DNA of 64,000 bases from Candidatus Magasanikiibacteriota bacterium (GTDB lineage: Bacteria > Patescibacteriota > Patescibacteriia > Magasanikbacterales > GWA2-37-8). Below the pieces are notes generated by a model, which was not told the origin of the DNA, ran no database searches, and saw only the letters and a list, made by a program, of their open reading frames with translations. Within the stretch, counting starts at the first letter, position 1; each line of letters opens with the position of its first letter. Both the position numbers and the translations under genes were made by a program. Below, one piece after another: positions 32,529-58,194 of the stretch. The stretch lies in assembly GCA_016182085.1 (NCBI GenBank), contig JACOYB010000008.1:10507-74506 (forward strand), written 5' to 3'.

Positions 32529-32557
32529 TTGACAAATGGCCTATTTTAAGGTATATG
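32529..32557 (+). promoter_or_regulatory. Sigma70-like promoter for the metalloprotease gene
   Basis: TTGACA, a 17-bp spacer, then TATATG. The SD AAGGAG sits 7 nt before the ATG at 32587. Confidence 0.5.
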
Positions 32558-32586
32558 TACCTTCATTAACCGCCAAGGAGATACAC

Positions 32587-33558
32587 ATGCCCAGAACTTT
32601 CTGGCTAGTCGTTGCCTTTCTGGTGGTTTTGTCCACCACTGGCTGCACCAAGTGCTCCCAATCAAATGGGACACCGACTTCCACAGATCCGTGTGCGGAT
32701 CAAGGAGAGCGGGATGCCCTCCTGACCATGTGGGAGTCCGACATGGCAACCGCCCAAGTGGAGTTTGGCCTCTCACAGGCCTGGACCAACTGGGTCAACG
32801 AACACAAAGGTTCCTACCAGAATCCCTACATCCACACTCGCTGCCGAGACAAGGCCGCGGAAATTCTGGTCCTTCTAACCTATTATGGAGGAGCTGGACG
32901 AAAGCCGACCTTCTTCAGAGATGGGTGGACGCAGGAAAAAGAAGATCACTTCCGTGACCTTATGGAAAGGTACATGGAAAAGGTCTTTTCAGGCTTTGAC
33001 TTTTATCTCACCTTCAACTCTGAGGGTTCCAGATGGGTCAACGCCGAAGAAGCTCGTTTGATTTTGGCTGTCGGATACAACGGACCAGCGTCGTTTGCAA
33101 CAGACAAGTACCTCTACCTCATTTATCCGGCTATCGTTGGACATGAGGCGGCACACTTGTGCCCTCAACCTTATGACCAGAATGGCTGGTGTATGGGGTA
33201 CGACCACCATTACTGCAATGACGAAATAGACAATCATGAGCGTTGCGCGCCACCAGGTGAATTTGAAGTAGGCTGCATCATGCACCGCAACGCCCTAACA
33301 TTCGGACCAATGGAGCAAAAGATCTCCGGACTTGATTATCCTTTCTCGCCAGAAGCCCGACAAGCGCTGGAAGACGAGATTGAGGGTATAGGACTGGAGA
33401 TCAAAACCATGTTGCCCGAAGAAATGGTTGCTCGCGGCGAAGCCGAACTTGAAGCGCCACTCAACCACGGTCTTGAGCTGACACCGCAGCAGCGACAAGA
33501 CCACATTGCTCACAAGCAACTTCTCCAGAATGGCCAGTACTGGCTTTCTGGAGAGTAG
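32587..33558 (+). CDS. Lipoprotein zinc metalloprotease (HExxH) encoded in a GC-rich island
   Basis: Signal plus lipobox (LVVLSTTGC) and HEAAH in …AIVGHEAAHLCPQ…. Local GC is about 55-58%, against about 40% nearby. The start is reassigned to the Met preceded by AAGGAG. Confidence 0.65.
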   Translation: MPRTFWLVVAFLVVLSTTGCTKCSQSNGTPTSTDPCADQGERDALLTMWESDMATAQVEFGLSQAWTNWVNEHKGSYQNPYIHTRCRDKAAEILVLLTYYGGAGRKPTFFRDGWTQEKEDHFRDLMERYMEKVFSGFDFYLTFNSEGSRWVNAEEARLILAVGYNGPASFATDKYLYLIYPAIVGHEAAHLCPQPYDQNGWCMGYDHHYCNDEIDNHERCAPPGEFEVGCIMHRNALTFGPMEQKISGLDYPFSPEARQALEDEIEGIGLEIKTMLPEEMVARGEAELEAPLNHGLELTPQQRQDHIAHKQLLQNGQYWLSGE

Positions 33559-33592
33559 GCGAGCAATCAAGGAAGCCACCGGCTTCCGTCGT

Positions 33593-33624
33593 CCACCACC
33601 CTAAAAGGTGGTGTTTTGTTTTTT
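33593..33624 (+). terminator. Rho-independent terminator
   Basis: ccaccacc-ctaaaa-ggtggtg followed by ttttgtttttt. Confidence 0.7.
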
Positions 33625-33664
33625 ACAAAAGTTTCTTAACTAGAATAATCTTGGATCGCTGTGC

Positions 33665-33693
33665 ATATCCTACTACATAGTGTAGTAGGATAT
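33665..33693. promoter_or_regulatory. Perfect 13-bp-arm palindrome containing the TACTACA-N3-TGTAGTA motif
   Basis: atatcctactaca-tag-tgtagtaggatat. The core is shared with the sites at 38203 and 39777. Confidence 0.5.
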
Positions 33694-33750
33694 GAGTTTG
33701 CTTATTAAAATACAAAAGCCGCCAAAATTTACACACATCTTGACGGCGCC

Positions 33751-34035
33751 TCACCATACACAATATGCAATAGTGAAAACAACTGAACCTCCAATCCACA
33801 ACCGGGTTGTCCATGAAATCTTTCTACGCTCTTGCCAATCCCGAATCATTTTCCCGAATACACGACTGTTTAAGAGCCGCTTGTGGAATTTTTCCGATCC
33901 CTTGTTGTAACAACCGGCTGCCAGAAACGCAAACAGGGCGGCCGGCACATGCGGCAATACTAACCCCAGAAAGGCGAGGATTGCTGCCAAATGCCCGGCA
34001 AAAACAAAAAGCCATTTCGGGACTTTGACCTTCAT
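33751..34035 (-). CDS. YbaN/DUF454-family inner-membrane protein
   Basis: LGLVLPHVPAALFAFLAAGCYNKGSEKFHKRLLNSRVFG matches the YbaN pattern (LPxxPxxxFxLLAAxCxxxxSxRFHxWLL). The region is GC-rich. Confidence 0.65.
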   Translation of the reverse strand: MKVKVPKWLFVFAGHLAAILAFLGLVLPHVPAALFAFLAAGCYNKGSEKFHKRLLNSRVFGKMIRDWQERRKISWTTRLWIGGSVVFTIAYCVW

Positions 34036-34089
34036 TACTTTCTCCTTTAGTTCCCTTAGCCAAACTACTTTTTCGTTTAAGTTTCTTTG

Positions 34090-34160
34090 TGGACCTGGCG
34101 AGAATCGAACTCGCGTCTGAGCAATGCGAATGCCCTATACTACCACTGTAATACAGGCCC
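34090..34160 (-). tRNA. tRNA-Ala (anticodon CGC)
   Basis: Reverse complement GGGCCTGTATTACAGTGGTAGTATAGGGCATTCGCATTGCTCAGACGCGAGTTCGATTCTCGCCAGGTCCA. It has the G3:U70 pair and anticodon loop TTCGCAT. Confidence 0.7.
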
Positions 34161-34168
34161 TAATATTT

Positions 34169-34188
34169 TGTGCCCCCAGCATGAATTG
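34169..34188. repeat. Direct repeat of the 3' 20 nt of tRNA-Arg (possible att remnant)
   Basis: tgtgcccccagcatgaattg occurs at 34169-34188 and again at 34319-34338, inside the tRNA. The two copies are separated by 130 nt of GC-rich sequence. Confidence 0.6.
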
Positions 34189-34320
34189 GCTTCGGCTCTT
34201 ACTCGCTTCCACTCATTCGGCCTAGCCACCGCCTCGCGGCCGCACTCGCCAGCCTGCGTCGTGCGACATCACTCCGGCGTTCAATTCATATCGCAACACA
34301 CGCAGGTGTGTTGCGCTTTG

Positions 34321-34392
34321 TGCCCCCAGCATGAATTGAACACACATCTTACCCTTAGGACGGGTCTGTTCTATCCGTTGAACTATGGGGGC
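34321..34392 (-). tRNA. tRNA-Arg (anticodon CCT)
   Basis: Reverse complement GCCCCCATAGTTCAACGGATAGAACAGACCCGTCCTAAGGGTAAGATGTGTGTTCAATTCATGCTGGGGGCA. The fold has acceptor GCCCCCA/TGGGGGC, D-stem GTTC/GAAC and anticodon loop GTCCTAA. The T-stem is weak, with two G·U pairs. Confidence 0.6.
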
Positions 34393-34456
34393 AAATTGAA
34401 TTGATAAATGAAACTATATAGGAAAAATGTTGTTTTGACAATGAGCCTATCCCGAT

Positions 34457-35575
34457 TTGAAACTTTCCTTGTTCAAGGCTATAATTGCAAGTGCTATGCA
34501 AACCATTCTCTTCATATTTCTAATCATACTTTCACTTGGCTTGGCCGCGGCGGTTTTTTTACTTATCAAAAAACAAGGAACTAAACCAAACGACGGCGAA
34601 CAAAATCTTTTCTTAATGCTGCAAAACCAAATCCAGGATTTAAATAGGCTGGTAGAACAAAAGATTACCGACACGCATAAAGTAATGAGCGATACTCAGG
34701 CAAATTTAAACAAAACTATCCAATCGCAATTTGGCCAAAGCATGAAAATAATTACCGATGTCACGGAACGCCTGGCCAAACTGGACGAAACTAATCGCCA
34801 GGTTATCAGTTTCACCGACCAGTTACAAAATTTGCAAGATATTTTAAAAAATCCAAAGCAGAGAGGGATTTTGGGGGAATATTATCTGGAAACACTCCTC
34901 AAAAATGTCTTGGCTCCTAGCCAATACCAAATGCAATACGGATTTAAAAACGGCGAAATTGTGGACGCGGTTGTATTTGTAAAGGATAAAATTATTCCGG
35001 TTGATTCTAAATTTTCTTTAGAAAATTATAATAGAATGATTGAAACAACTGATGCGACAGAGAAATCCAGATTAGAAAAACTTTTTGTAAATGATCTGAA
35101 ATTGCGCATTACCGAAACCGCCAAATATATCAGGCCCGAAGAGGGGACAATGGAATTTGCTTTTATGTTCATTCCTCATGAGGCTATATATTACGATCTT
35201 CTTATAAATAAAATTGGCGCCATCACCGAAGATACCGAAAACCTGATCCAGCGCGCCGCCGGTAAGTATAAAGTTATAATTGTTTCACCCACCTCATTTT
35301 TGGCATACTTACAAACTGTCTTGCAGGGCCTAAAAGCCATGCAGATAGAAGAAACAACCAAAGATATCATAAAGCGCGTTGGGGAAATTGGCACCCACTT
35401 AAAAAAATATGAAGAGTACCATAATAAGTTAGGCAGCTCTCTCGGCACGACAGTCAACCATTTCAATAGTTCAAGCAAGGAATTCAAAAAGATAGATAAA
35501 GATGTGGTTCGTATTACCGGTGGTTCGGCCGGTTTTGAAATTGCCCTCATAGACAAGCCGGACTCTGAAGAATAG
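34457..35575 (+). CDS. rmuC: DNA recombination protein RmuC
   Basis: N-terminal TM, coiled-coil, then RmuC core motifs (GEYYLETLL…FAFMFIPHEAIYY…VIIVSPTSFLAYLQTV). Confidence 0.85.
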   Translation: MKLSLFKAIIASAMQTILFIFLIILSLGLAAAVFLLIKKQGTKPNDGEQNLFLMLQNQIQDLNRLVEQKITDTHKVMSDTQANLNKTIQSQFGQSMKIITDVTERLAKLDETNRQVISFTDQLQNLQDILKNPKQRGILGEYYLETLLKNVLAPSQYQMQYGFKNGEIVDAVVFVKDKIIPVDSKFSLENYNRMIETTDATEKSRLEKLFVNDLKLRITETAKYIRPEEGTMEFAFMFIPHEAIYYDLLINKIGAITEDTENLIQRAAGKYKVIIVSPTSFLAYLQTVLQGLKAMQIEETTKDIIKRVGEIGTHLKKYEEYHNKLGSSLGTTVNHFNSSSKEFKKIDKDVVRITGGSAGFEIALIDKPDSEE

Positions 35576-35681
35576 CAACCCTTGACTTTTACTGTAAAAA
35601 GTAGTACTGTATGCAAGTTGGAATTAATAAACTTCACTCTCATTTTTATTTATTCTGCCTTAAATCAACATTTTAAACACT

Positions 35682-35927
35682 ATGCCTAATATTCAAAGTG
35701 CGAGAAAAGAACTTCGTAAAGCCAAAAAACGCGCCGCCTTAAATAAATTGCGCCGCGATACATATAAAAATTTGCTAAAAACCGCCGTGGTTTCCAAATC
35801 TGCAGATGCAGTCAAGGCCGCTCAAAAAGCCCTAGACAAAGCCGCTAAAAACGGTGTTATCAAAAAGAACACCGCCGCCCGCAAATTGTCCCGCTTGATG
35901 AAAAAATTGAATAAGACCAAAAAATAA
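35682..35927 (+). CDS. rpsT: 30S ribosomal protein S20
   Basis: MPNIQSARKELRKAKKRAALNK… is an S20 signature. Confidence 0.9.
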   Translation: MPNIQSARKELRKAKKRAALNKLRRDTYKNLLKTAVVSKSADAVKAAQKALDKAAKNGVIKKNTAARKLSRLMKKLNKTKK

Positions 35928-35946
35928 AGCTTAGTATAAATTAAAA

Positions 35947-36051
35947 TAGGTATTGTATTTTGCAACACACCGGAGGCCGATTCGCATCGGCCGAGGTCTG
36001 AAGCGACCAGTCGCCACAGCGACTGGGACGCTGTTTGCAAAAGACAATACC
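35947..36051. ncRNA. Structured element copy A (long outer stem enclosing two hairpins); strand unresolved
   Basis: Outer stem ggtattgtattttgcaa/ttgcaaaagacaatacc, with inner hairpins ggccga-ttcgca-tcggcc and agtcgc-caca-gcgact. The core is about 90% identical to the copy at 54707-54825. Confidence 0.45.
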
Positions 36052-36093
36052 TGTTTTATTTATGTTTGCTAAATATAGCTTCCTCTTTTTAAT

Positions 36094-37059
36094 TTAACTC
36101 AATCTCGCTACAAACAAATCAATAAGCCAAGACTGGTCCGCAAGACCGGTCTTTGTTTTTATATCTATTTCCAAAAGCTGATTATAAATATCTTTTAATT
36201 TATCAAGCGAATATCTTTTAATAAGCGGTAATGATTTTTTTACCACAAACGGATGAAGCCCGAGCATTTTTGCCATCTGGTCGCTGGAAATATTTTCTTC
36301 TCTATTAAATAAATCACGAAGTGAAATAAGAATTCTAAACTGGCGCAAAATCATACTAAATAAATATCCGTCGTCTTGTCCCAAGCGCCTCTGATCTTCA
36401 ATTAGTTTGAACGCCAACTTTTGATTGCCGGCGACGATCGCATCAACCATATTAAAGATATTATCATCGGATTTTTCTTCCAAAAACAACTGTACATCAG
36501 AAAGAGCGATCTCTTTTGTGCCAGCATACGCCACCAGCTGATCAATGAGCGAACTGGCATGCCACATATCGCTCCCCGCGTGCTCTGCCAAATAATTTAA
36601 CGCGGCGGCGGAAATTGTACCACCGCGCGCAACAACTTCATTTTTTATCCAAGAAGTAAGTGCTGCGCCGCTAAGCAATGCAAATTCTTTAGCCCATGTT
36701 GCTTTAGCCAATATTTTATGCAATTCCTGAACGACCTTGGATTTTCCCATTGGCTCGGATTGGTAAAAAATTACAACGTTTTTTTCGGGGATTTTATTCT
36801 CTTTCACTCCTTGGATAAAGGACTCCAGTGTATCTGCATCTTTAGTAGATAAAATATTTTGAATAACTACAAGTCTTTTCTCCGCCAAAAATGGCATGGC
36901 AGTTATTTCATTCCACAAACGGCTGCTTTCTTCCTTTTGCCCATTCAAAATCACCACATTCATGCCTTGCGGGTCTCTTTCTTTTTTAAATCTTTCTATC
37001 TGTAATTTTAGATAGTTGTGGCTGGAAAATGTATCTTCGCCGTAAATATATATAATCAT
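36094..37059 (-). CDS. holA: DNA polymerase III delta subunit
   Basis: N-terminal IYIYGEDTF and the HolA clamp-loader delta fold pattern. The start is moved to the internal Met (MIIYIYG). Confidence 0.75.
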   Translation of the reverse strand: MIIYIYGEDTFSSHNYLKLQIERFKKERDPQGMNVVILNGQKEESSRLWNEITAMPFLAEKRLVVIQNILSTKDADTLESFIQGVKENKIPEKNVVIFYQSEPMGKSKVVQELHKILAKATWAKEFALLSGAALTSWIKNEVVARGGTISAAALNYLAEHAGSDMWHASSLIDQLVAYAGTKEIALSDVQLFLEEKSDDNIFNMVDAIVAGNQKLAFKLIEDQRRLGQDDGYLFSMILRQFRILISLRDLFNREENISSDQMAKMLGLHPFVVKKSLPLIKRYSLDKLKDIYNQLLEIDIKTKTGLADQSWLIDLFVARLS

Positions 37060-37241
37060 AATAATTAGCTTTCCAATAAGCATTACAATTTTAATGCTTA
37101 TCTTCTTTTTTAGCAATATTTTACATTGACAAAATCAAAAAAATATAGTAGTGTGGGTCTCACCCATATATGGTGATTCCTTCGGCGGAACTAATATCCG
37201 CCAGCACCTAACAGGGCTTTTCCCTTCCGAAACGGAGCATC

Positions 37242-37631
37242 ATGAACAACCCCGATCCTTTCGATCCGCCCGATGAACTGGACCAGACGCTGCACGGCGA
37301 CGAGGTGCCGCCGACAACTACGACCAGCGACGAGACTGGCGAAGACGATGAGTCCACGGCCGATACCATGGACCGGAACCGACCCCCGTCCGACGGCTCC
37401 CCGCTTGCAGATGAGGCCGTGTTCATTGAGCTCGGCGAGATCGCCGATGCCATTGACGAGGTGATTGATGACGATCTGAAGTTTGATCGTAATCAGCCCG
37501 TCACCATGAGCGGTCAAATCGGCACTGCCAAGTCCAGTCCGGCCCATGACGCCAGGCTTCACCAATGGAAAGCCATTAACGTGGACGCTTCCATTGGCGG
37601 CGGTACGGATGCGAGTAATCGCCTTCCCTAG
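37242..37631 (+). CDS. Acidic hypothetical protein encoded in a GC-rich island (~60% GC)
   Basis: A GGAG SD sits 6 nt upstream of the ATG. The ORF is highly acidic and low-complexity (DPPDELDQTLHGDEVPPTTTTSDETGEDDEST…), with strong terminators immediately after it. Confidence 0.5.
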   Translation: MNNPDPFDPPDELDQTLHGDEVPPTTTTSDETGEDDESTADTMDRNRPPSDGSPLADEAVFIELGEIADAIDEVIDDDLKFDRNQPVTMSGQIGTAKSSPAHDARLHQWKAINVDASIGGGTDASNRLP

Positions 37632-37650
37632 CGAGGGCGAACAAGGAGAA

Positions 37651-37725
37651 TATGGTAGCTGTTCTGAGGAAACAGAACAGCTACCACCTATAAATTAAAG
37701 CATCGCGCCTCAAGCGCGTTTTTTT
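37651..37725 (+). terminator. Two hairpins, the second a canonical rho-independent terminator
   Basis: gtagctgttctg-aggaaa-cagaacagctac is a perfect 12-bp stem. gcgcctcaagcgcg followed by ttttttt is the second hairpin. Confidence 0.7.
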
Positions 37726-37831
37726 AATGGTCCCAGACCATAGAGGGGTTGACTAACCCCTCAAAATATGGTAAGTTATCTTCGCCCTAGCGACAGCCTG
37801 CAAGGCTTTCCCGCTAGCGCACAGGAACTAC

Positions 37832-37942
37832 ATGCAGAAGAACAACATCGCCAACCCCCGCGGTCGTCCGACCAGCAACACGGAGGCCCTCGTTCATAGC
37901 GATCGCAAGAATCTCGACAACACCGGCGCCGGCGCCAACTGA
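37832..37942 (+). CDS. Small ORF (36 aa) in GC-rich island, SD-preceded
   Basis: AGGA 6 nt before the ATG. The product is MQKNNIANPRGRPTSNTEALVHSDRKNLDNTGAGAN. A TTGACT-N17-TAAGTT promoter-like sequence lies at 37749-37777. Confidence 0.3.
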   Translation: MQKNNIANPRGRPTSNTEALVHSDRKNLDNTGAGAN

Positions 37943-38033
37943 TCCCAGCTCGACGCCGACGACAACGGTCTCGCGACCTGAATCCTCATCCTGAGGAGCC
38001 GGGCCGGGGCCGATCCTCCGCGCTGCGGGAGAG

Positions 38034-38144
38034 CATCATGGAGAACTTCCTGACAACAGGATGTTCCACCTGGCTCAAGCAGCCACCGGAAGGGCGGCGG
38101 CACCAAGTCTTCGGACACGGTGCCGCCGCCCACTCCGTCTATAA
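38034..38144 (+). CDS. Small ORF (36 aa) in GC-rich island, SD-preceded
   Basis: GGAGAG 5 nt before the ATG. The product is MENFLTTGCSTWLKQPPEGRRHQVFGHGAAAHSVYN. Coordinates are approximate. Confidence 0.25.
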   Translation, partial: HHGELPDNRMFHLAQAATGRAAAPSLRTRCRRPLRL

Positions 38145-38202
38145 TTAACTCAGCCATTACTTAGCTCACGCATACCTTGCGGGCTTTTTTTGTTTTATGC
38201 TA

Positions 38203-38219
38203 TACTACACATTGTAGTA
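38203..38219. promoter_or_regulatory. Candidate BlaI-family operator TACTACA-cat-TGTAGTA overlapping the promoter of the repressor gene
   Basis: A perfect palindrome 23 bp upstream of the ATG at 38242. BlaI/MecI/CopY repressors bind TACA/TGTA dyads. Confidence 0.6.
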
Positions 38220-38241
38220 AATTTTTTATCCTAAAAAATAT

Positions 38242-38628
38242 ATGCGATATAACGCTACCACTTCTTCCTTAGGAAGTTTGGAAGAAGAAATCATGCAAAT
38301 AATTTGGAAAGAGCCCGCGGCTTCGGTGCGTTTGGTTTTTGAAAAAATAAAAAAAAGACGCGAGATTGCCTATACTACCGTTATGACCATTATGTCCCGC
38401 TTGCACGCCAAAGGCATACTAAACCGCAAACAAAAAGACGGCGGCGCTTATGTTTACGCCCCGGCGCAAAGCAAAGAAAAATTCTTGGAACAAATTTCCG
38501 AACGGGTAATAAAAAACTTAATAAAAAATTGCGGCGAGGTAGCCGTGGCCAGATTTATAGATATAGTGGAAGCGGGTAATTTTAAAAAATCAGCTCAGTG
38601 GAGAAAAAAACTGAAAAAGATTAAATGA
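38242..38628 (+). CDS. BlaI/MecI/CopY-family winged-helix transcriptional repressor
   Basis: …EEEIMQIIWKEPAASVRLVFEKI…YTTVMTIMSRLHAKGILNRKQKDGGAYVY matches the penicillinase-repressor fold. There is no C-terminal CxCx4CxC motif, so it is not CopY-like. Confidence 0.8.
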   Translation: MRYNATTSSLGSLEEEIMQIIWKEPAASVRLVFEKIKKRREIAYTTVMTIMSRLHAKGILNRKQKDGGAYVYAPAQSKEKFLEQISERVIKNLIKNCGEVAVARFIDIVEAGNFKKSAQWRKKLKKIK

Positions 38629-38643
38629 TTCCGGTTTTAAATT

Positions 38644-39702
38644 ATGATTTTTAACATGCGGCAAAAATCCAACTGGCTGTTTGCTCAAATTATAATCTTG
38701 GGAACGATTATAACTATTCTTATCGCCGGTTTATTTTATAAAATTTATAATTTCACATTCGGCGCTTTAGGCAATATTACTCTAAACCGCATACAAAATG
38801 CTTGCGGCTGCCAAATACCTTCATCCGCCAACAACTCTGTCCTTACGGGGTTTGCTGTTCTGCTGGGATCGGCTATAGTCATATCTTTTATTTTTGCCTT
38901 ATCCAAAATAATTATTTCTTTAATAAAAACCAAAAAATTTATAAGCCTGCAAAAAATAAACTTCGTTAAAAGCTCTAAAAAATTAACCCAGGTAGCGGCC
39001 ACCATCGGCATCCAAAATCAGGTGGTAGAAATAAATACAACCCAACCCCTTATTTTTTGCCACGGACTAAAAAGCGAAAAAATATACATATCATCTACGG
39101 TAGTAAAAGCTTTGAGTTTTGCCCAGTTACAAACAGCTCTGCTACACGAGACCCATCATTTGCTTACAAAAGAGCCGGCTCGATTATTAATCCTAAAACT
39201 CATCGGGGTATTTGGTTTTATCCCGGGCATCAATAGTTTAATAAAAAAATATTTGTCTTTTTCGGAGATCGCGGCCGACGAACTGGCTACAGATAACTTT
39301 AAAGAAAAAAACCATCTGGCCGCGGCTATGGCCAAAATTTTGGAACTGGAAGAAAAAAACATTATCCAAAAAGAGTTAGCCGTATCTTTCTTCAGCCAGA
39401 TGACAGAAGAACGAGTTGTAAATTTAAGCGAAGCTGGTTATAAACCAACATTTAAAACAGAGCTGCTAAAAGCAGCTTTTGGCATAGCTGGTGCAGCTAT
39501 ATTTATTTTATTTTTTAGCTCCAACCTAAATGTTCAACAGTCCAAGGCCCAAGAAATATATACAAAATCCGGCTGCGCCGAACAAATTTATAAAATTGAA
39601 AAATGCCAAAACGGCTGGACAAAATGCGCCGAACAAAATTATCATCAAGAAAAAACCAATTGTCAAAAATCTATCAAATACTTTGATAAGTTAAAAAATT
39701 AA
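38644..39702 (+). CDS. BlaR1/MecR1-like M56-family signal-transducing metalloprotease with a novel Cys-rich C-terminal domain
   Basis: Multiple TM helices, zinc site LLHETHHLLTKEPARL (HExxH), then a C-terminal CAEQIYKIEKCQNGWTKCAEQNYHQEKTNC with four Cys. There is no penicillin-binding domain. Confidence 0.7.
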   Translation: MIFNMRQKSNWLFAQIIILGTIITILIAGLFYKIYNFTFGALGNITLNRIQNACGCQIPSSANNSVLTGFAVLLGSAIVISFIFALSKIIISLIKTKKFISLQKINFVKSSKKLTQVAATIGIQNQVVEINTTQPLIFCHGLKSEKIYISSTVVKALSFAQLQTALLHETHHLLTKEPARLLILKLIGVFGFIPGINSLIKKYLSFSEIAADELATDNFKEKNHLAAAMAKILELEEKNIIQKELAVSFFSQMTEERVVNLSEAGYKPTFKTELLKAAFGIAGAAIFILFFSSNLNVQQSKAQEIYTKSGCAEQIYKIEKCQNGWTKCAEQNYHQEKTNCQKSIKYFDKLKN

Positions 39703-39776
39703 TTACTTGCCTGCAGGGTAGTGAGTTTAACTCTACTGCCCTGTGGATAAATAAATTTTACAATTAAAGCCATACC

Positions 39777-39793
39777 TACTACAATATGTAGTA
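39777..39793. promoter_or_regulatory. Second candidate BlaI-family operator TACTACA-ata-TGTAGTA
   Basis: A perfect dyad 20 bp upstream of the ATG at 39813. Confidence 0.55.
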
Positions 39794-39812: not shown

Positions 39813-40562
39813 ATGCAAATAAACAAAGGCTGGTTAAAAAATAATCTAAACACGCTTCTCCTGGTGCTGCTTACCGTTTCGGTGGCTTCCAACCAGTTTA
39901 TCTTGGCAAAAACACAAAAAGTAGTCGGTATAAAAAATAATACCGCTCTCAGCTCTCTTACCGTGCGATTCCAAAAAATTATTAAGGGCGGCGTGGGTCT
40001 TTCCGGAAATCTGGGCGAAGATGCGGTAAAATTGGCCTTTATACAGGGCATACCGGAGGTATACGGCGCTGAATTAAATGTTAATTTTGACCAGCCGGCA
40101 GAATCAATGGGGGCGCTCAAACAATTTGATCTGGGTTATGGAAGAAATAAGCCCGACCTTTCCGCAGAAGAAAAAAAGCGATATACGGATATAAACTTGA
40201 AAATTTCTTGCGAATTTTGCTGTGGAGCAAAGGCGATAGTTTTTGAAAATGGCGAACCTTCCTGCGGCTGCGCCCATTCGCAGGCCATGAGAGGACTAAC
40301 TGCTTATTTAATAAAAAACCATGGGACCGAATATTCCGATGATCAAATTTTAAGAGAGCTGGCCAGTTGGAAAAGCCGCTGGTATCCAAAACAGATGGTG
40401 CAAAAAATGTCGGACCAATTAAAAAGCGGCAGCTACACCCCAGATATTGCCTCCTTGCTTCTGGATGTAAAATTGCCAAAATACGATGGAGCCGCCCACA
40501 GCGGAGCCGCGCCTTTGCCATCAGACATACAAAACGCGCCTAGTATGGTAGGCGGATGCTAG
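39813..40562 (+). CDS. Membrane-anchored Cys-rich protein with C-terminal PSMVGGC tag
   Basis: N-terminal TM, then CEFCCGAKAIVFENGEPSCGCAHS. The C-terminus is …AHSGAAPLPSDIQNAPSMVGGC. Confidence 0.6.
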   Translation: MQINKGWLKNNLNTLLLVLLTVSVASNQFILAKTQKVVGIKNNTALSSLTVRFQKIIKGGVGLSGNLGEDAVKLAFIQGIPEVYGAELNVNFDQPAESMGALKQFDLGYGRNKPDLSAEEKKRYTDINLKISCEFCCGAKAIVFENGEPSCGCAHSQAMRGLTAYLIKNHGTEYSDDQILRELASWKSRWYPKQMVQKMSDQLKSGSYTPDIASLLLDVKLPKYDGAAHSGAAPLPSDIQNAPSMVGGC

Positions 40563-40633: not shown

Positions 40634-40900
40634 ATGGATGAACAAAAAAATTCCAGCGGGCTGGAATCTATAAAAAACGAAATTATCACTAAACTAAACG
40701 ACCAAAATAAAAAATCTTTGTCTTGGAATAATATGGTGGTAACGGCCGTTTTAGCGGTACTGACCATTGTCTCTCTTTCGCAAATGGCCGCTTCTATTAC
40801 TATTTTTAACAAACTAAAAACCGGCGATGTCCAAGCCGCTTCCGGAGCGCCTCAAAATAACTCTCTGCAAAGCTTGCCGGATATGGTGGGCGGATGCTAA
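40634..40900 (+). CDS. Small membrane protein with C-terminal PDMVGGC tag (paralogous tail to the previous gene)
   Basis: One TM (VVTAVLAVLTIVSL). The C-terminus is …AASGAPQNNSLQSLPDMVGGC. The DNA for the two tails is also near-identical (atggtaggcggatgcta versus atggtgggcggatgcta). Confidence 0.55.
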   Translation: MDEQKNSSGLESIKNEIITKLNDQNKKSLSWNNMVVTAVLAVLTIVSLSQMAASITIFNKLKTGDVQAASGAPQNNSLQSLPDMVGGC

Positions 40901-41742
40901 ATCGTATGAATGAACAACAAAACAATTTAAAAGTTAATTACTGGTTTTTAATGGCTGCTTCCGGGTTTATACTTATTGGCGGCATTGTTTCTACCGCGTT
41001 CTTCTTAAAAACCAACTCTCTGGCGAACAAAAATATCACGGCCGCAACCGAAACCAAACGTCCGGCTAATTTGGAATGGATAGCTATTCTAGACGAATCT
41101 TGCAAAGATTGTTTTGATATAAATCCGGTCTTTGATTACCTTAAAAAAGAAAATGTAAATTTTACTTCTCAAAAAAATCTGGATAAAAACAGCGAGGAAG
41201 GCAAAAATTTAATTGAAAAATATTCCATAAAAAAACTACCGACCTTTATTCTAAAGGGCGAGCTGCAAAAAAACTCCGTCCTGGCCCAATTTTTTTCTAA
41301 AACCGGAGATACCGAAGAAAACACTTTTGTTTTTAGGCAAGTAGGCGCTCCATATAGTTTAGCTGCTACTGGAGAAGTAAAGGGCCAAGTAAACTTTACC
41401 ATGATTACTGACACTTCCTGTACCGAGTGCTATGACGTAACCCAACACGAAATAATTTTACAGCAGTTTGGTATTGCGAGTCCGGGCACCGTAATTGATG
41501 CCAAATCCGCGGCTGGCCAAGCGCTCATTAAAAAATATAGAATAACTCTTGTACCAACATTTATTCTATCCGGAGACATGAACGAGTATCCAAGTCTTAA
41601 GCCGGTCTGGGCACAGGTTGGCGTGATAGCCAGTGATGGCACGTATGTATTTACCTCTGGCACGCCATTTATGGGAACATACAAAAACCTAACGACCAAC
41701 AAAGTAATTTCTCCTCCGGTTCAAAATAGTTCACAGCAATAA
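40894..41742 (+). CDS. Membrane-anchored tandem thioredoxin-fold protein with two CxxC motifs
   Basis: N-terminal TM. Domain 1 has CKDC with a cis-Pro motif KLPTFIL. Domain 2 has CTEC with LVPTFIL. Confidence 0.65.
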   Translation: MLNRMNEQQNNLKVNYWFLMAASGFILIGGIVSTAFFLKTNSLANKNITAATETKRPANLEWIAILDESCKDCFDINPVFDYLKKENVNFTSQKNLDKNSEEGKNLIEKYSIKKLPTFILKGELQKNSVLAQFFSKTGDTEENTFVFRQVGAPYSLAATGEVKGQVNFTMITDTSCTECYDVTQHEIILQQFGIASPGTVIDAKSAAGQALIKKYRITLVPTFILSGDMNEYPSLKPVWAQVGVIASDGTYVFTSGTPFMGTYKNLTTNKVISPPVQNSSQQ

Positions 41743-41743
41743 T

Positions 41744-42208
41744 ATGCTTAAAAACATTGCCCTAATAATACTAGTTGCAGGCGCAGCCACGGCCATGGTC
41801 TGGGCTATCATAAAACAGCCCTCGGCCACAACAGTTTCTCCGGCCACCGAAAATTACACTATATCTAAAACCGGCATCCATTATCATCCAAAGTTGGATA
41901 TTTATATCAAAGGCCAGTTGCAAACTATTCCGACTAATATTGGCATAGGCGCGGTGCACCTGCCAATACATACTCACGCGGCAGATCATATAATTCACTT
42001 GGAATTCTCTCGGTTAGTAACTCTGGACGATACAAGACTGCAGGAATTCTTCAAAATCTGGAATAAAAAATTTGACGCTAATTGTATTTTTGATAATTGC
42101 AATGGACCAAGCGGAACGGTAAAAATGTTTGTCAACGGCCAGCCGAATAGTGAGTTTGAAAAATACCCAATGAAAAATGATGATAGAATTGAAATTCGCT
42201 ACGAATAA
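41744..42208 (+). CDS. Membrane-anchored His-rich protein (possible metal-binding)
   Basis: N-terminal TM, then GIHYHPKLDIY…AVHLPIHTHAADHIIHLEF. No recognised domain. Confidence 0.55.
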   Translation: MLKNIALIILVAGAATAMVWAIIKQPSATTVSPATENYTISKTGIHYHPKLDIYIKGQLQTIPTNIGIGAVHLPIHTHAADHIIHLEFSRLVTLDDTRLQEFFKIWNKKFDANCIFDNCNGPSGTVKMFVNGQPNSEFEKYPMKNDDRIEIRYE

Positions 42209-42213
42209 CTTGC

Positions 42214-42411
42214 ATGATTAAAGAAATAACTATTCCAATTTTAAAAAGAAAAAAATACGCTCTTGTTGCCCTAGCCGCGGCTATTATAATGGCTGGCCTT
42301 TCTTATTACCTCACGATTGTTAATGTGGCCTTTCACAGTTTTTTTGTTCTTATCCAAATGGACGGCTGGGCCTTTACCACCGTTTCCTTAGGGCTTTCTT
42401 TGATTATTTAG
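42214..42411 (+). CDS. Small two-TM membrane protein
   Basis: 65 aa, hydrophobic, the last gene of the co-directional cluster. Confidence 0.35.
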   Translation: MIKEITIPILKRKKYALVALAAAIIMAGLSYYLTIVNVAFHSFFVLIQMDGWAFTTVSLGLSLII

Positions 42412-43671
42412 CATGAATTTGGCGGAGTCGCTGATTTTGAATCCTGCCTTTACTAACTCTGCCTCCAGTTGTTTGGCAGTTTTACCGCCGATCTCTACGG
42501 TTCCACGGCGGATTTTGCCTTCGGGGAACCAAAACTCGGAATAAATATGATTGATTATATCGGGTAGGGTTTTAAAAATACCAGGATACAAGGGGCCGAT
42601 ATATATTTTGGTACCTCTGTTTACTTCATTTTCTTTTTGCGCTATTTCCTCCGGTTTCACTTTAATGCCAATAAAAATTTGTGCGATTTTGGCAACATCT
42701 ATTTTGGACAACCCTTCCAGTGGCATGGCGCCCGCTTTTAAATACGGGGATTCGGTATTCGGGTTAAAATCTCGATAATGCACCTCGCCATTTTCAGTTA
42801 AAAGATGCTGGTCTTTGACTTCAATATCATCGAGTTCGTCGGGTGAAATATTGGAAAAATCTCTCGGTTCGCCAGTGTCAGTGGTAGTTTTTCCAACTTG
42901 CTTTATAACGCCAAACAAATCAAGGCCTGCAATATCTTGATTGGTAATCAAATCATCATTGGCTTTTTTTATTTGTATAACTATCTTGTTTTTTGGATCA
43001 TATTCAATAGTCAAAATCGGACTGTCTCCTTCCAGCTCACCCATTTGACCTAGTTTTTCATTAAATACGGGCACGGTACGCAGAGAAAATATCTCAATTT
43101 CACCTCTCTTCATTCTGTTTATATACGAATCACTCGTGCCAACACAGTGCCCCATATAATCAGATTCTTTTTCTAAATGCGGCATATTAAGAAGTTTGGC
43201 CAGATAAAATTTGCCGGAATTAGTGGTAAAAAAAGCCTCGTACGGATTAAGTTCTTGGTTGCCGGTAATTTCGGCGCGTCGTTTGCGTATCTCGGCAATT
43301 TTATACAGGGTTTTTTGTTCGTGAATTTTAAGCAAACGATGCAATCCGCCTTTTTCAATAGAAATAAAATTTGGCGTTTCAATAATGGCATCAAAAAGAG
43401 TATTTTCATCAACAGTGTTTTCTCTCTGAAAATATCGCGCTAATTTTAATTTTAAAATTGCCTGTTCTTGCTCGCCAAATAAAAACCCTTCCTGTCTGGA
43501 AAGACGCGCTTGCAAAGTATTAAAAGCAGCGGAAATAAGAGGTTCTTTTTGCGAACGTACATCTTCCGAAAAGATGGCGAGAGTATCTTGGTATAATTTT
43601 TCTACACTCGCTTTAGCGGGGCTGGCTGCTTCGGCTTTGGCATAGTCGTGCCGGATTCTTTCTGGGGTCAT
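42388..43671 (-). CDS. Hypothetical protein (427 aa)
   Basis: A long ORF with coding-like composition and no recognised motifs. Confidence 0.5.
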   Translation of the reverse strand: MTPERIRHDYAKAEAASPAKASVEKLYQDTLAIFSEDVRSQKEPLISAAFNTLQARLSRQEGFLFGEQEQAILKLKLARYFQRENTVDENTLFDAIIETPNFISIEKGGLHRLLKIHEQKTLYKIAEIRKRRAEITGNQELNPYEAFFTTNSGKFYLAKLLNMPHLEKESDYMGHCVGTSDSYINRMKRGEIEIFSLRTVPVFNEKLGQMGELEGDSPILTIEYDPKNKIVIQIKKANDDLITNQDIAGLDLFGVIKQVGKTTTDTGEPRDFSNISPDELDDIEVKDQHLLTENGEVHYRDFNPNTESPYLKAGAMPLEGLSKIDVAKIAQIFIGIKVKPEEIAQKENEVNRGTKIYIGPLYPGIFKTLPDIINHIYSEFWFPEGKIRRGTVEIGGKTAKQLEAELVKAGFKISDSAKFMLNNQRKP

Positions 43672-55276: not shown

Positions 55277-56671
55277 ATGTCTAACCACGAAATATGGCAG
55301 GCCGTCCTAGCTGAACTTGAGCTTTCCATTTCCAAACCAAACTTTGTTACCTGGTTTAAAAATACAGATATCTTGTCCTATCAGGATAATTATGTTGTTT
55401 TGTGCGTCCCAAATGACTTTTACCGCGCTTGGATAGAAAAAAACTACCACCAAACCATCGTAAAATCTTTAGAGAGGGTTACCGAAAAGCCTGTAAAAAA
55501 ACTGGAATATAAAATTTTCAACATTAAAAACATTGTTCCTCAAACTCATGAGGTAAAAACTGAAAACCCCGTTCCCGAAACAAATTTAAGCACACCCGAC
55601 TTTTCTTCAAGCGAGGGTAAAATACCGCCTCGTGTCGGTGAGTTTGGCTTAAACCCAAAGTATAATTTTGAAACCTTTGTGGTTGGTGGCGGTTCAGAGC
55701 TGGCTTTTGCCGCAGCCCAGGCTGTGGTAAATAAACCCGGTGAAGCCTATAACCCACTATTTATTTATGGCGGCGTAGGGCTTGGCAAAACCCACTTGGT
55801 CCAGGCTATTGGCAACCACTTGTTAAAGGCCAGACCCAACATTAGCATCATGTATGCCAGCGCCGAGAAATTTTCCAATGATTATATTGCCTCGGTTAGA
55901 GATGGTAATGCCAAAAACTTTCAAAATCGCTATCGCAATATTGATGTGCTTTTAATTGATGATATCCAATTTATCTCGGGCAAAGACAAAACCCAAGAAT
56001 CTTTTTTCCACACCTTCAACGAACTCCACCAGCAAAACAAGCAAGTAGTAATGACCTCTGACCGCCCGCCAAAAGCTATCCCGGCCCTGGAAGACCGCTT
56101 AAAATCCCGTTTTGAATGGGGTATGATTGTGGATGTGGCTCCACCAGACCTGGAAACCAGAATCGCGATTTTGCAAAAAAAATGTGTAGAGAAGAATTTT
56201 CCGCTTAACCAAGAAATTTTACAGCTGGTTGCTACCACTATTTTCCGCAATATCCGCGAACTAGAGGGGGCTTTAAACAAAATTATCGCCCTACATCAGC
56301 TCAAAAACATGGAACCAACTGTGGAATCGGTAAAATCTCTCCTAGCTAACTCCGAGGTCAGGACTACCTACAAATCCATCACCCCCCAACAAATTATTGA
56401 AGCTGCCAGCGAATTCTTTACCATCAACATTGCTGACTTACTTGGCCAAAGCCGAGAAAAAAAATTCTCCTATCCACGCCAAATTATCATGCATCTCATG
56501 CGTAAAGAGCTGAACATGTCGTATCCGGCAATTGGCAACGAACTCGGTGGCCGCGACCACACCACCGCCATGCATGCCGACAACAAAATTAGCAATGATA
56601 TTGAACGAGACAACAAATTAAAACAAGAGATTGAACTGATTAAACAAAAATTGTATATCAATATTACCTAG
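55277..56671 (+). CDS. dnaA: Chromosomal replication initiator DnaA
   Basis: The AAA+ Walker A (GGVGLGKTHLVQAIGN), sensor motifs, and a C-terminal DNA-binding domain (…HTTAMHADNKI…) are present. Confidence 0.95.
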   Translation: MSNHEIWQAVLAELELSISKPNFVTWFKNTDILSYQDNYVVLCVPNDFYRAWIEKNYHQTIVKSLERVTEKPVKKLEYKIFNIKNIVPQTHEVKTENPVPETNLSTPDFSSSEGKIPPRVGEFGLNPKYNFETFVVGGGSELAFAAAQAVVNKPGEAYNPLFIYGGVGLGKTHLVQAIGNHLLKARPNISIMYASAEKFSNDYIASVRDGNAKNFQNRYRNIDVLLIDDIQFISGKDKTQESFFHTFNELHQQNKQVVMTSDRPPKAIPALEDRLKSRFEWGMIVDVAPPDLETRIAILQKKCVEKNFPLNQEILQLVATTIFRNIRELEGALNKIIALHQLKNMEPTVESVKSLLANSEVRTTYKSITPQQIIEAASEFFTINIADLLGQSREKKFSYPRQIIMHLMRKELNMSYPAIGNELGGRDHTTAMHADNKISNDIERDNKLKQEIELIKQKLYINIT

Positions 56672-56689
56672 CAAATATAAAAATACCTG

Positions 56690-57060
56690 AGCATAAGTTG
56701 TGGATAAGGGAGGTAAAAACAACACTTCTTACACACTCTTTATTAACACTACCAAACACTTATAAACAGATAAAATAAATTCCGAAAAATCCGCCCACAC
56801 TTTATTAGTCCAGTCCGCACAATTTACCAACAGCTATAATTAAGAAAGGTTTGCTAGATATAACGCTTTTTCCGACTTATCCACCCTTATCCACCGCATT
56901 ATAGTAACGATTGTAATTTATTTATAAATAAATCGATATACAATAATAGACAATAAAAATTTACCCACGGTTTTTAATAAAATTTTATAGGGGCTAAAGC
57001 CGCATATATACTCGTTCGCTCATATAAAGTTAAAAACATTTAACTTTATATTCACTCATT
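56690..57060. promoter_or_regulatory. Candidate oriC, a DnaA-box cluster plus an AT-rich unwinding region
   Basis: DnaA boxes TTGTGGATAA (56698-56707), CTTATCCACC ×2 (56876-56896) and TTTACCCACG (56961). An AT-rich tract lies at 56920-57000, between dnaA and dnaN. Confidence 0.6.
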
Positions 57061-57066
57061 TCGCAT

Positions 57067-58194
57067 ATGAAATTCTTTTGCACAAAGGAGAACTTGTCAA
57101 AAGCTTTGGCGCTGGTAATTGGGGTGGCCGGTAAAAATATTAACCTGCCAATACTTGGCAATGTCCTTATCAAGGCGACTGAACAAAAAGTAGAATTTAT
57201 GGCCACTAATTTAGAGTTGGCTATAACTTCCAATCTACGAGCCAAGGTAGAAGTTCCGGGTGTGTTTACGGTACCGGCCAGAACCCTCAATGACTTTGTG
57301 AATTTATTATCTGAAGAAAAAGTTGAGTTAACCCTAAAAGATAACGAGTTAGAGGTGGTGTGTGGGAGGTCTTCAACCAAGATAAAAGGCGCGCCAGCCG
57401 ATGAGTTCCCGGTTGTGCCGGTGGTAGGCGAAGGAAAGGGTTATTTAATAGAGGTAGAGGCCCTTAAGAGCGGTTTAGGACAGGTTTTTCAGGCGGCGTC
57501 AAAGAATGAAATTAGGCCAGAGCTCGCCGGTGTTTTGTTTAATTTCAATGATCAACCAGGGGTGCTTACTTTGGCCGCAACTGACAGTTATAGGTTGGCA
57601 GAAAAGAAGGTAAAAGTGCTGCAAGGAGAAGATAAGGCACGGATAATTATTCCAGCTCGCACGGCGCAGGAAATGAACCACATTTTAATAATTTCCCTAT
57701 CCAAAGGAGCAGAAAGCGAAAAAAACATCCGACTGCTGGTAACCGAAAATCAAATAGTTTTGCGCTGCAATGATGTGGAACTCGTGTCTCGCCTGGTAGA
57801 CGGCCAATATCCGGATTATACCCAGATTATTCCAACCAGCTTTAAAACCGAGGCGGACTTCTCTACAAACCAGATAACCAAGGAAATAAAGGCTGCTAGT
57901 TTGTTCACCACAACTGGTGTAAATGCTGTAAGTTTTGAGTTTGACCCCACAGCCGGGGTTATTCATTTGTCTTCGGTTTCCACCCAGACCGGTGAGTACA
58001 AATCCGAAGTTTCGGCAGATGTTAAGGGTGAAAAGAATAATACGCTTTTGAACCACCGGTATATTTTAGACGGTCTTTCAAATATCAACACCGAGAACGC
58101 GGTGTTAAAGGTAATAAATGCGGACAGCCCGTGCGTGCTTGCGCCAAAGGGCGATCAAAGCTTTGTTTATATTGTGATGCCTATAAGACAATAA
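57067..58194 (+). CDS. dnaN: DNA polymerase III beta sliding clamp
   Basis: N-terminus MKFFCTKENLSKAL…, three-domain length (375 aa), position after dnaA. Confidence 0.9.
   Translation: MKFFCTKENLSKALALVIGVAGKNINLPILGNVLIKATEQKVEFMATNLELAITSNLRAKVEVPGVFTVPARTLNDFVNLLSEEKVELTLKDNELEVVCGRSSTKIKGAPADEFPVVPVVGEGKGYLIEVEALKSGLGQVFQAASKNEIRPELAGVLFNFNDQPGVLTLAATDSYRLAEKKVKVLQGEDKARIIIPARTAQEMNHILIISLSKGAESEKNIRLLVTENQIVLRCNDVELVSRLVDGQYPDYTQIIPTSFKTEADFSTNQITKEIKAASLFTTTGVNAVSFEFDPTAGVIHLSSVSTQTGEYKSEVSADVKGEKNNTLLNHRYILDGLSNINTENAVLKVINADSPCVLAPKGDQSFVYIVMPIRQ

Follow-up and report, generated by a model that had tools for sequence, protein, structure and literature searches.

Repressors of the BlaI/MecI/CopY family bind imperfect TACA/TGTA dyads of 24-30 bp with the core TACANNTGTA (PMC1935004, PMC7253601). 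We analysed a related palindrome in a 64,000-nucleotide stretch of DNA from Candidatus Magasanikiibacteriota bacterium (contig JACOYB010000008.1, positions 10,507 to 74,506), which is called the window below and is numbered from its first letter. The 17-bp dyad TACTACA-N3-TGTAGTA occurs there at three sites, one of them upstream of a BlaI-type repressor gene (blaI) and another downstream of the adjoining gene for a BlaR1-like M56 membrane protease (blaR).

The best described systems of this kind are BlaI/BlaR1 and MecI/MecR1 of Staphylococcus aureus, which likewise place a PF03965 winged-helix repressor gene beside an M56 membrane metalloprotease gene, and in which a palindromic operator overlaps the promoters of both the regulatory genes and the target gene. 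The half-site found here, (T)ACTACA, is of the mec type and nearly identical to the end ...GACTACAT of the mecA half-operator, ATAAGACTACAT (PMC1935004), and a conserved Phe of the repressor falls opposite F102, part of the MecI cleavage site, in the alignment. In contrast to the S. aureus systems, the spacing is TACA-N3-TGTA rather than N2, the protease has a Cys-containing tail of ~55 aa and a CGC loop in place of the penicillin-binding sensor domain of BlaR1/MecR1, the predicted targets are thiol/metal envelope proteins rather than beta-lactamase or PBP2a, and the regulatory and target units stand in tandem rather than divergently.

The CopY/TcrY/CopR repressors belong to the same protein family, and their cop box TACANNTGTA, refined to RNYKACANNYGTMRNY, has the same TACA/TGTA core (PMC7253601). 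In sister loci of the one described here the dyad also stands before metal genes (HMA, cupredoxin and CsoR). The present repressor differs from CopY/TcrY/CopR in having no CxC site, a TIGR02698 score far under the cut-off, a protease partner and an operator one base pair wider. Among solved structures its best match is Mycobacterium tuberculosis BlaI (Rv1846c, 2g9w), whose recognition helix AYTTVM is nearly identical and whose target genes are different. The partner BlaR of that organism (Rv1845c) is not known to have a penicillin-binding domain, and the regulon reaches beyond beta-lactamase.

In Clostridioides difficile, CenIR also combines a BlaI-like repressor with a BlaR-like protease that has no beta-lactam-binding domain; the short, poorly structured C-terminal tail of the protease is the proposed sensor and its signal is unknown (PMC13492132). 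In contrast to CenIR, the protease studied here has conserved Cys residues in the tail and the first loop, and its regulon can be read from operators in >60 genomes, which point to a specific signal class. Clostridium thermocellum BlaI_0696 and BlaI_1845, characterised by DNA affinity purification sequencing (DAP-seq), resemble the present repressor in serving small, self-contained and autoregulated regulons through an inverted repeat, GTCTAT-N5-ATAGAC, with a 5-nt spacer (PMC8457756). Their half-site is different, and they need two repeat pairs per promoter, whereas one dyad is present here. Literature searches returned no description of this operator, of the MVGGC protein terminus described below or of BlaIR in the Candidate Phyla Radiation (CPR). 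One apparent match, TrcR, is an unrelated ribbon-helix-helix repressor.

The dyad, its probable repressor and the predicted promoters

The window contains exactly three perfect matches to TACTACA-N3-TGTAGTA, at 33671-33687 (site 1), 38203-38219 (site 2) and 39777-39793 (site 3), against 0.00 expected from dinucleotide-preserving shuffles; a chance origin of the three copies is excluded. Copies with one or two mismatches are absent from the rest of the 64 kb, and copies with three mismatches (three in the window) occur at the shuffle level. The ATG of blaI (38242) lies 22 nt beyond the end of site 2, and that of c249 (39813), the first downstream gene, 19 nt beyond the end of site 3. A preliminary description of this DNA had listed the same three copies and the distances of sites 2 and 3 to these genes, and both were correct. 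Position 35590, examined as a further copy, was rejected because it is the promoter of rpsT (S20; TTGACT-N17-TAGTAC, 35581-35606), which has one mismatch to the degenerate dyad; its -10 TAGTAC imitates a half-site, and the left half is not kept in relatives, which marks the likeness as chance. In the near-matches at 15833 and 25437 the core is broken at one position each.

An alignment of 30 repressor orthologues retrieved 34 loci from reference genomes, of which 33 are CPR loci with repressor identities of 48-93%. The comparative scan covered 350,544 bp in these 33 orthologous loci, roughly 12 kb for each relative, and the window's own genome was covered by its 64 kb. The core TACTAY-N5-RTAGTA occurred 67 times in the 33 loci, against 0.245 expected. 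Thirty cores were just 5′ of blaI, 31 just 3′ of the blaR-like gene, five at the position of site 1, and one just before c249 in L003, a locus into which an additional DsbA-like gene is inserted; none was found anywhere else in the 350,544 bp. Upstream of blaI, the dyad was a perfect core in 30 of the 33 loci and was present in 31 when up to two mismatches to the full motif were allowed. The preliminary description had proposed to examine whether the motif is common at random positions and whether it is conserved upstream of orthologous repressor genes; it is rare in the window and the 33 loci together, and it is conserved at that position.

The constrained core differs slightly from the form first described. 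It is TACTA-Y-N5-R-TAGTA, usually inside a longer imperfect palindrome. Across 64 sites, positions 1-5 (TACTA) and 13-17 (TAGTA) were essentially invariant, position 6 was C or T, and position 12 was nearly always G. The remaining positions depended on the class of site. In the autoregulatory, upstream (UP) sites, positions 7 and 11 were free and the flanks did not extend the palindrome, whereas the flanks of many downstream (DN) sites and of site 1 extended it with covarying bases.

Each class also stood in a fixed register with promoter elements. In the UP sites (n = 32), the bases before the dyad read T(-4)G(-3)nT(-1)A(0) in 22-30 cases, which creates an extended -10 element, TGnTATACT, while the centres of the dyads were free. 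In the window, site 2 (38198..38219 on the + strand, including the dyad at 38203-38219) contains the extended -10 TGcTATACT of the blaI-blaR promoter at 38198-38206, which bears out the earlier assignment of this copy to an autoregulatory position. In the DN sites (n = 32), A7 and T9 were invariant, and dyad positions 4-9 read TACAAT, TACACT or TATACT (the -10 form TAYAMT). A TTGACA/TTTACA -35 element was located exactly 17 bp upstream in 32/32 sites, with a mean match of 5.4 of 6 compared with 2.46 in the background; a score of at least 4 of 6 was reached by 100% of the 32 sites and by 12.6% of background positions. The promoter scan accordingly defined site 3 of the window (39757..39793, + strand) as a -35 TTTACA at 39757-39762, a 17-bp spacer and a -10 TACAAT at 39780-39785 within the dyad at 39777-39793. 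Site 3 is thus predicted to sit in a sigma-70-type promoter that is conserved in orthologues, and this -35/-10 register supports the earlier proposal that the copy governs the gene cluster 3′ of the protease gene. L009 has no DN site, and its c249 begins ~60 bp after blaR, suggesting that c249 is probably co-transcribed with blaR from the autoregulated promoter there.

The repressor gene (38242..38628, + strand) encodes a BlaI/MecI-type winged-helix protein of 128 aa that matches PF03965 at 89.6 bits (cut-off 22.6, E = 2.4e-25) and so falls within the family labelled "penicillinase repressor". With a profile of the orthologues, the closest solved relatives were Rv1846c (2g9w, E = 6e-13), followed by MecI and BlaI. 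The recognition helix AYTT[VI]MT[IV]M was invariant in 33/33 orthologues, in parallel with the invariant half-sites. MecI N101-F102 (...VLNF...) aligned with [R/Q]104-F105 (...VA[R/Q]F...), of which F105 was invariant. The dyad is very probably the operator of the repressor encoded at 38242-38628, serving autoregulation and control of the target operon, and derepression would be the work of the M56 protease. The preliminary description had called it the probable operator of the adjacent BlaI/MecI/CopY-type repressor, and the conservation footprint, the promoter register and the family match all favour that assignment.

The protease and the predicted target operon

The protease gene (38644..39702, + strand) starts 16 bp after blaI and follows it in 33/33 loci. 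Its product, a predicted BlaR1-like M56 membrane zinc metalloprotease of 352 aa with an HExxH motif, belongs to an orthologue group in which 22/22 members matched PF05569 (M56; best 2.2e-17). The orthologue profile matched the protease domain of S. aureus BlaR1 (8exs, E = 6e-4) with the HExxH and E..AD motifs aligned, and the M56 catalytic residues H168-E169-x-x-H172 and the downstream Glu E208 were invariant. Pfam, NCBIfam and PDB searches detected no penicillin-binding (transpeptidase-like) sensor domain in the protease. The protein ends ~55 aa after its last membrane helix, and in the window this tail holds four Cys residues. C54-G-C56 in the first loop, C139, and C311 in the tail were invariant in 34/34 sequences, and C328 and C340 were present in 31/34 and 28/34, respectively. 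The tails are otherwise unalignable; by eye, 24/33 have four Cys and most others have two. By analogy with the topology of BlaR1, the C-terminal tail and the CGC loop are inferred to face the outside of the cell.

Downstream of site 3, the first predicted target gene, c249 (39813..40562, + strand), encodes a membrane-anchored Cys-rich protein (CEFCCG...CGCAHS, C-terminal ...MVGGC) and is syntenic in most of the 33 loci. More than 543 homologues were found, and no Pfam domain was present in any of them. The Cys residues of c249 are invariant, as is VGGC at the C-terminus, the latter in 38 c249 homologues. The AlphaFold2 model of c249 (predicted local distance difference test score 77) had no fold match in the PDB, and the protein had no sequence match there. 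It is followed by c88 (40634..40900, +), an open reading frame (ORF) of conserved synteny for a small membrane protein that also ends in ...MVGGC, and by c282 (40894..41742, +), also in conserved synteny, for a membrane-anchored protein with two thioredoxin-like CxxC modules (CKDC and CTEC) and weak thioredoxin/glutaredoxin-like matches. The next ORF, c154 (41744..42208, +), encodes a membrane-anchored His-rich protein (HYHP...HTH...H) that matched no family or structure in the searches; the gene is found in synteny in L011, L012, L015, L027, L029 and L031, as well as in two metagenome loci, L071 and L110. In many relatives an extra DsbA/GILT-like gene directly follows the dyad.

The C-terminal motif ...[SD]MVGGC is common to c249 (40542-40562) and c88 (40880-40900), and the DsbA/GILT-like protein encoded at 7559-8389 of L003 ends in ...GGCGG. 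The shared Gly-Gly-Cys tag may bind a metal, or may direct processing or anchoring of the proteins.

The last gene of the set, c65 (42214..42411, +), is the truncated 5′ part of a membrane-protein gene, c160. It aligns only with residues 1-70 of the 160-aa L003 protein (74% identity), and the missing part bears a CPTCG motif. Full-length c160 (160-166 aa), with CPTCG in a membrane helix, is present in L001, L003, L005 and L015. The window copy is cut after ~65-70 codons by a PcfJ-like gene (PF14284) in the opposite orientation (42388-43671, - strand), which looks like an insertion of foreign DNA. In L029 (8977-10293), and in the same region of L031, a c160-like membrane domain with a GCPICG motif is fused to a c249-like Cys-rich domain, a fusion that suggests that the two proteins act together.

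The order blaI-blaR-[dyad]-c249-c88-c282-(c154)-c160 was found in most of the 33 loci, among Magasanikbacteria, Buchananbacteria and Parcubacteria, and the G+C content of the target genes equals the ordinary genome value. Because of this synteny across lineages and genome-like composition, c249-c88-c282-(c154)-c160 is read from sequence as a conserved target operon and not an acquired island. The preliminary description had placed the downstream genes in a horizontally acquired island, a view that has to be given up; the foreign-looking piece is the PcfJ-like gene.

Loci with ~50% repressor identity extend the set of genes that follow the dyad by four, for a CsoR-type repressor, a membrane protein combining HMA, DsbD_2 and cupredoxin domains, an HMA chaperone and a DsbA-like protein. 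A metagenome scan for CTACTACA-N3-TGTAGTAG retrieved at least 120 stretches. Among the matches listed, 32 had blaI or blaR homologues and 10 more had target families only; the gene types were DsbA-like (18), HMA-DsbD-cupredoxin (12), c160 (7), c249 (6) and CsoR (5). The remaining 78 of the matches listed were chance-like, in GC-rich or triplet-repeat DNA, with a -35 element in register in 2.6%. No CopA or CopZ genes are present in the window. The genes under predicted control are thus, as judged from their sequences, a membrane thiol/metal-handling set and not an antibiotic-resistance gene. A distant metagenome clade (L055, L067, L081, L089, L135, L143 and L152), in which the first target gene is usually DsbA-like, has a protease tail of a different type, with the motif PV[NH]A[IV]ELHExGxDV..LC....C.S.C, rich in His, Glu, Asp and Cys.

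The DnaA-box-like element, site 1 and the GC-rich segments

A 9-mer at 39742-39750 (+ strand), TGTGGATAA, lies 6 nt 5′ of the -35 element of the target promoter and is the reverse complement of the DnaA-box consensus TTATCCACA. In the L001-L033 loci a DnaA-box-like 9-mer recurred ~33-37 bp 5′ of the DN dyads: GTGGATAA or a one-mismatch variant was located 5-8 nt 5′ of the -35 element in ~28/32 CPR loci, within or outside the blaR coding sequence. The element was absent from the more distant metagenome loci. A role as part of a blaR terminator hairpin was rejected, as folding of 19 loci gave no consistent hairpin. TGTGGATAA or a near-identical 9-mer also occurs three times in the dnaA-dnaN spacer of the window, and 39742-39750 is therefore a predicted site that agrees with the DnaA-box consensus used at the organism's own oriC. 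The genes concerned are dnaA (55277-56671) and dnaN (57067-58194), and two TTATCCACC boxes (56877-56895) lie in their spacer (56672-57066) together with TGTGGATAA at 56699. The cumulative GC skew has its minimum near 57 kb, which together with the DnaA boxes between dnaA and dnaN indicates that the window contains a replication origin.

Site 1 (33671..33687, assigned to neither strand), a predicted orphan BlaI box, is a perfect dyad within a palindrome at 33664-33694 with arms of 13-14 bp, which folds into a hairpin of -21.9 kcal/mol (z = -5.3). It lies in a stretch of 49% GC between p340, the gene of a 340-aa HExxH lipoprotein (+ strand), and a DUF454/YbaN-like gene (- strand), so that its earlier description as part of a 13-bp-arm palindrome in GC-rich DNA between a metalloprotease and a YbaN-like gene was accurate. 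The terminators of the two flanking convergent genes, at 33594-33613 (+) and 33747-33718 (-), leave site 1 between them, in DNA predicted to be untranscribed. The spacer in the window, L001, L004, L005, L006 and L010 cannot be aligned apart from one invariant block, the dyad, and the dyad recurs in L118. It was always located between the 3′ ends of convergent genes, with GC-rich p340 on one side and a TfoX-like gene (DUF454 in the window and L001) on the other. Neither orientation showed a conserved -35 element at site 1, and a nearby promoter-like match at 33622-33649 was rejected as not above shuffle expectation.

Because its sequence and its C...G flanks are as in the DN sites, site 1 is probably a real repressor box, predicted to be of high affinity, and it may act as a roadblock, by titration or in some other way. 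The preliminary description had counted all three copies as a regulon extending to the genes at the third site. The extension holds in that site 3 is predicted to control a conserved operon, whereas site 1, having no promoter and no downstream gene, cannot be counted as a regulated target. A competing account of site 1 alone denies it a working role and takes it for a relic of a variable GC-rich segment beside tRNA genes, or for a landmark of recombination or insertion there. The region between p121 and tRNA-Ala is indeed variable, with p340, TfoX-like and DUF454 genes coming and going between genomes, and L013, L015 and L027, which do not have the segment, also do not have site 1; the missing promoter fits this account as well. 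However, the dyad is perfect in at least seven genomes while the surrounding spacer has diverged past alignment, and the C...G flanks typical of DN-type operators have been kept. We regard a relic as unlikely, though a serious candidate for this one site.

Gene gain and loss are concentrated in the segment beside tRNA-Ala and tRNA-Arg. In L118 (4710-6245), a DUF454 gene and then a TfoX-like gene precede site 1. The window (DUF454 at 33751-34035) and L001 have only DUF454 at this position, and in L004-L006 and L010 the neighbour of site 1 is the TfoX-like gene alone. The presence of both genes in L118 indicates that the window has lost TfoX.

Two GC-rich segments, 37117-38200 (between holA and blaI) and 32536-34035 (around site 1), have 49-56% GC compared with ~40% in the genome. 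Such segments are found at the same positions in L001, L003-L006, L009, L010 and L013 and are absent in L008, L011, L015 and L027. They contain their own promoter-like sites, perfect hairpins and terminators, and small acidic or AT-hook-like ORFs (...NPRGRP...). The L003 equivalent of the GC-rich spacer shows a strong A-over-T skew. At 3820-3836 of L003, TTCTACATATTGTAGTA, a dyad with one mismatch, is flanked by a TTTACA -35 and a TAGTAT -10 element, 5′ of the GC-rich small genes beside blaI. A dyad 5′ of the GC-rich genes between holA and blaI was found in L003 only, and not in the window or 11 other loci; the window holds only a half-site-like ATAGTAG at ~37145.

Proposed mechanism, alternatives and significance

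We propose that a repressor dimer would bind the dyad at both promoters. At site 2, an operator over the extended -10 of the blaI-blaR promoter would give negative autoregulation, and at site 3 the operator would surround the -10 of a strong sigma-70-type promoter driving c249-c88-c282-c154-c160. With both -10 elements covered by the bound dimer, the intact repressor would exclude RNA polymerase from both promoters. Derepression would proceed as in BlaR1/BlaI, in that the co-transcribed M56 protease would receive a signal from outside and inactivate the repressor by cleavage, probably at the [R/Q]104-F105 bond. By analogy, proteolytic inactivation is the likeliest mechanism, because the profile of the M56 partner matches BlaR1 and the Phe of the MecI cleavage site is conserved. 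The nature of the signal is the least certain step. The Cys motifs of the protease, together with the target functions (thioredoxin/DsbA-like, DsbD-like, HMA, cupredoxin and novel Cys-rich proteins), suggest copper or another thiophilic metal, or a disturbance of thiol/disulfide chemistry in the envelope.

Several points weigh against this interpretation as a whole. All of its support comes from comparative genomics of uncultured organisms, and only the conserved Cys residues and the functions of the targets point to the signal. The conserved Phe of the putative cleavage bond is preceded by R or Q rather than by the N of MecI. TACA-N3-TGTA is one base pair wider than the canonical TACANNTGTA of BlaI, MecI and CopY, although spacer variation is known in the family, as in the binding of GTCTAT-N5-ATAGAC by C. 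thermocellum BlaI_0696 (PMC8457756). The window protease taken alone scored 26.2 bits, below the Pfam M56 gathering cut-off of 31. Several protease orthologues have only two Cys in the tail, and the distant metagenome clade has no CGC loop and a different tail. Site 1 has neither a promoter nor a target gene, and many DN sites as well as site 1 may have a hairpin role, given the covarying extensions of their flanks.

Of the alternatives that concern the system as a whole, one is a CopY-like mechanism, in which the repressor itself senses a metal and leaves the DNA without proteolysis while the protease has some other role. CopY/TcrY (TIGR02698) is the best NCBIfam match of the repressor, CopY binds a closely related cop box, and HMA, CsoR and cupredoxin genes stand under the dyad in related loci. 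Nevertheless, the TIGR02698 score is 48.5 bits, well below the equivalog cut-off of 121.95, and the repressor contains no CxC or CxCx4CxC metal motif, C-terminal or otherwise, its single Cys (C97) being Tyr in several orthologues. The conserved Cys residues are in the protease instead, whose gene shares an operon with blaI in 33/33 loci. Direct metal sensing by the repressor is accordingly an improbable reading of this locus.

A second alternative takes the palindromes for structural hairpins of RNA or DNA, for example intrinsic terminators or elements resembling repetitive extragenic palindromic (REP) sequences, with the proximity to blaI incidental. Site 1, at -21.9 kcal/mol, passes a loose terminator scan, and at the DN sites the covarying flanks extend by up to 10 bp in many loci, with T-runs after some. 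Sites 2 and 3 of the window, however, fold weakly (-5.6 and -5.8 kcal/mol), the UP sites have no flank extension, and site 1 lies between two separate canonical terminators and is thus not needed as one. The stem sequence is invariant in 67 sites while the loop varies, which is the signature of sequence-specific recognition; the -35 and -10 elements stand at constant positions relative to the dyad, and the motif occurs nowhere else in the 350 kb. We therefore consider a purely structural origin highly improbable.

We give still less credence to a different regulator, either the CsoR type of some loci or an unlinked factor, with the linkage to blaI reflecting co-regulation: a CsoR-like repressor gene does directly follow the dyad in some loci, and the flanks ATACC...GGTAT bear what we take to be a loose likeness to the GC-containing palindromes of CsoR-type regulators, but most loci encode no other regulator, most of them, the window included, keep the dyad without a CsoR gene, the dyad stands 5′ of blaI itself in 30-31/33 loci, the half-site fits the known BlaI/MecI type, and the invariant recognition helix parallels the invariant half-site.

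Control of the dyad by the BlaI-type repressor thus remains our preferred reading. Systems that combine a BlaI-type repressor, an M56 protease and an autoregulated promoter with a palindromic operator are already known. What is new, with no description returned by the literature searches, is the operator geometry, a sensor with cysteines as its conserved features, and a conserved DnaA-box-like element by the target promoter. Also new is a CPR-wide regulon, probably present in other phyla too, of thiol/metal envelope genes that include several uncharacterised families. As a broader and tentative model, on which we place less than even confidence, a proteolytic switch of the BlaR/BlaI type, found widely in CPR and, it seems, in further phyla, may have been re-tooled to sense the envelope thiol/disulfide state or thiophilic metals (copper) through the CGC loop and Cys-rich tail of the protease. 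It would control Dsb-like, HMA, cupredoxin, c249/c88 (MVGGC) and c160 (CPTCG) proteins, and in one clade the DnaA box would couple the operon to replication status too.

BlaR/BlaI pairs that lack a beta-lactam sensor are common and their signals are unknown, as for CenIR (PMC13492132); in the system described here the question of sensing becomes a testable hypothesis. An operator that can be read in >60 genomes defines a small and coherent envelope thiol/metal regulon, and the cysteines are the only conserved features of the sensor that would face outward. Clear promoter/operator architectures are few in CPR, and the locus adds one; it also gives a regulatory context to several large uncharacterised families of CPR membrane proteins.

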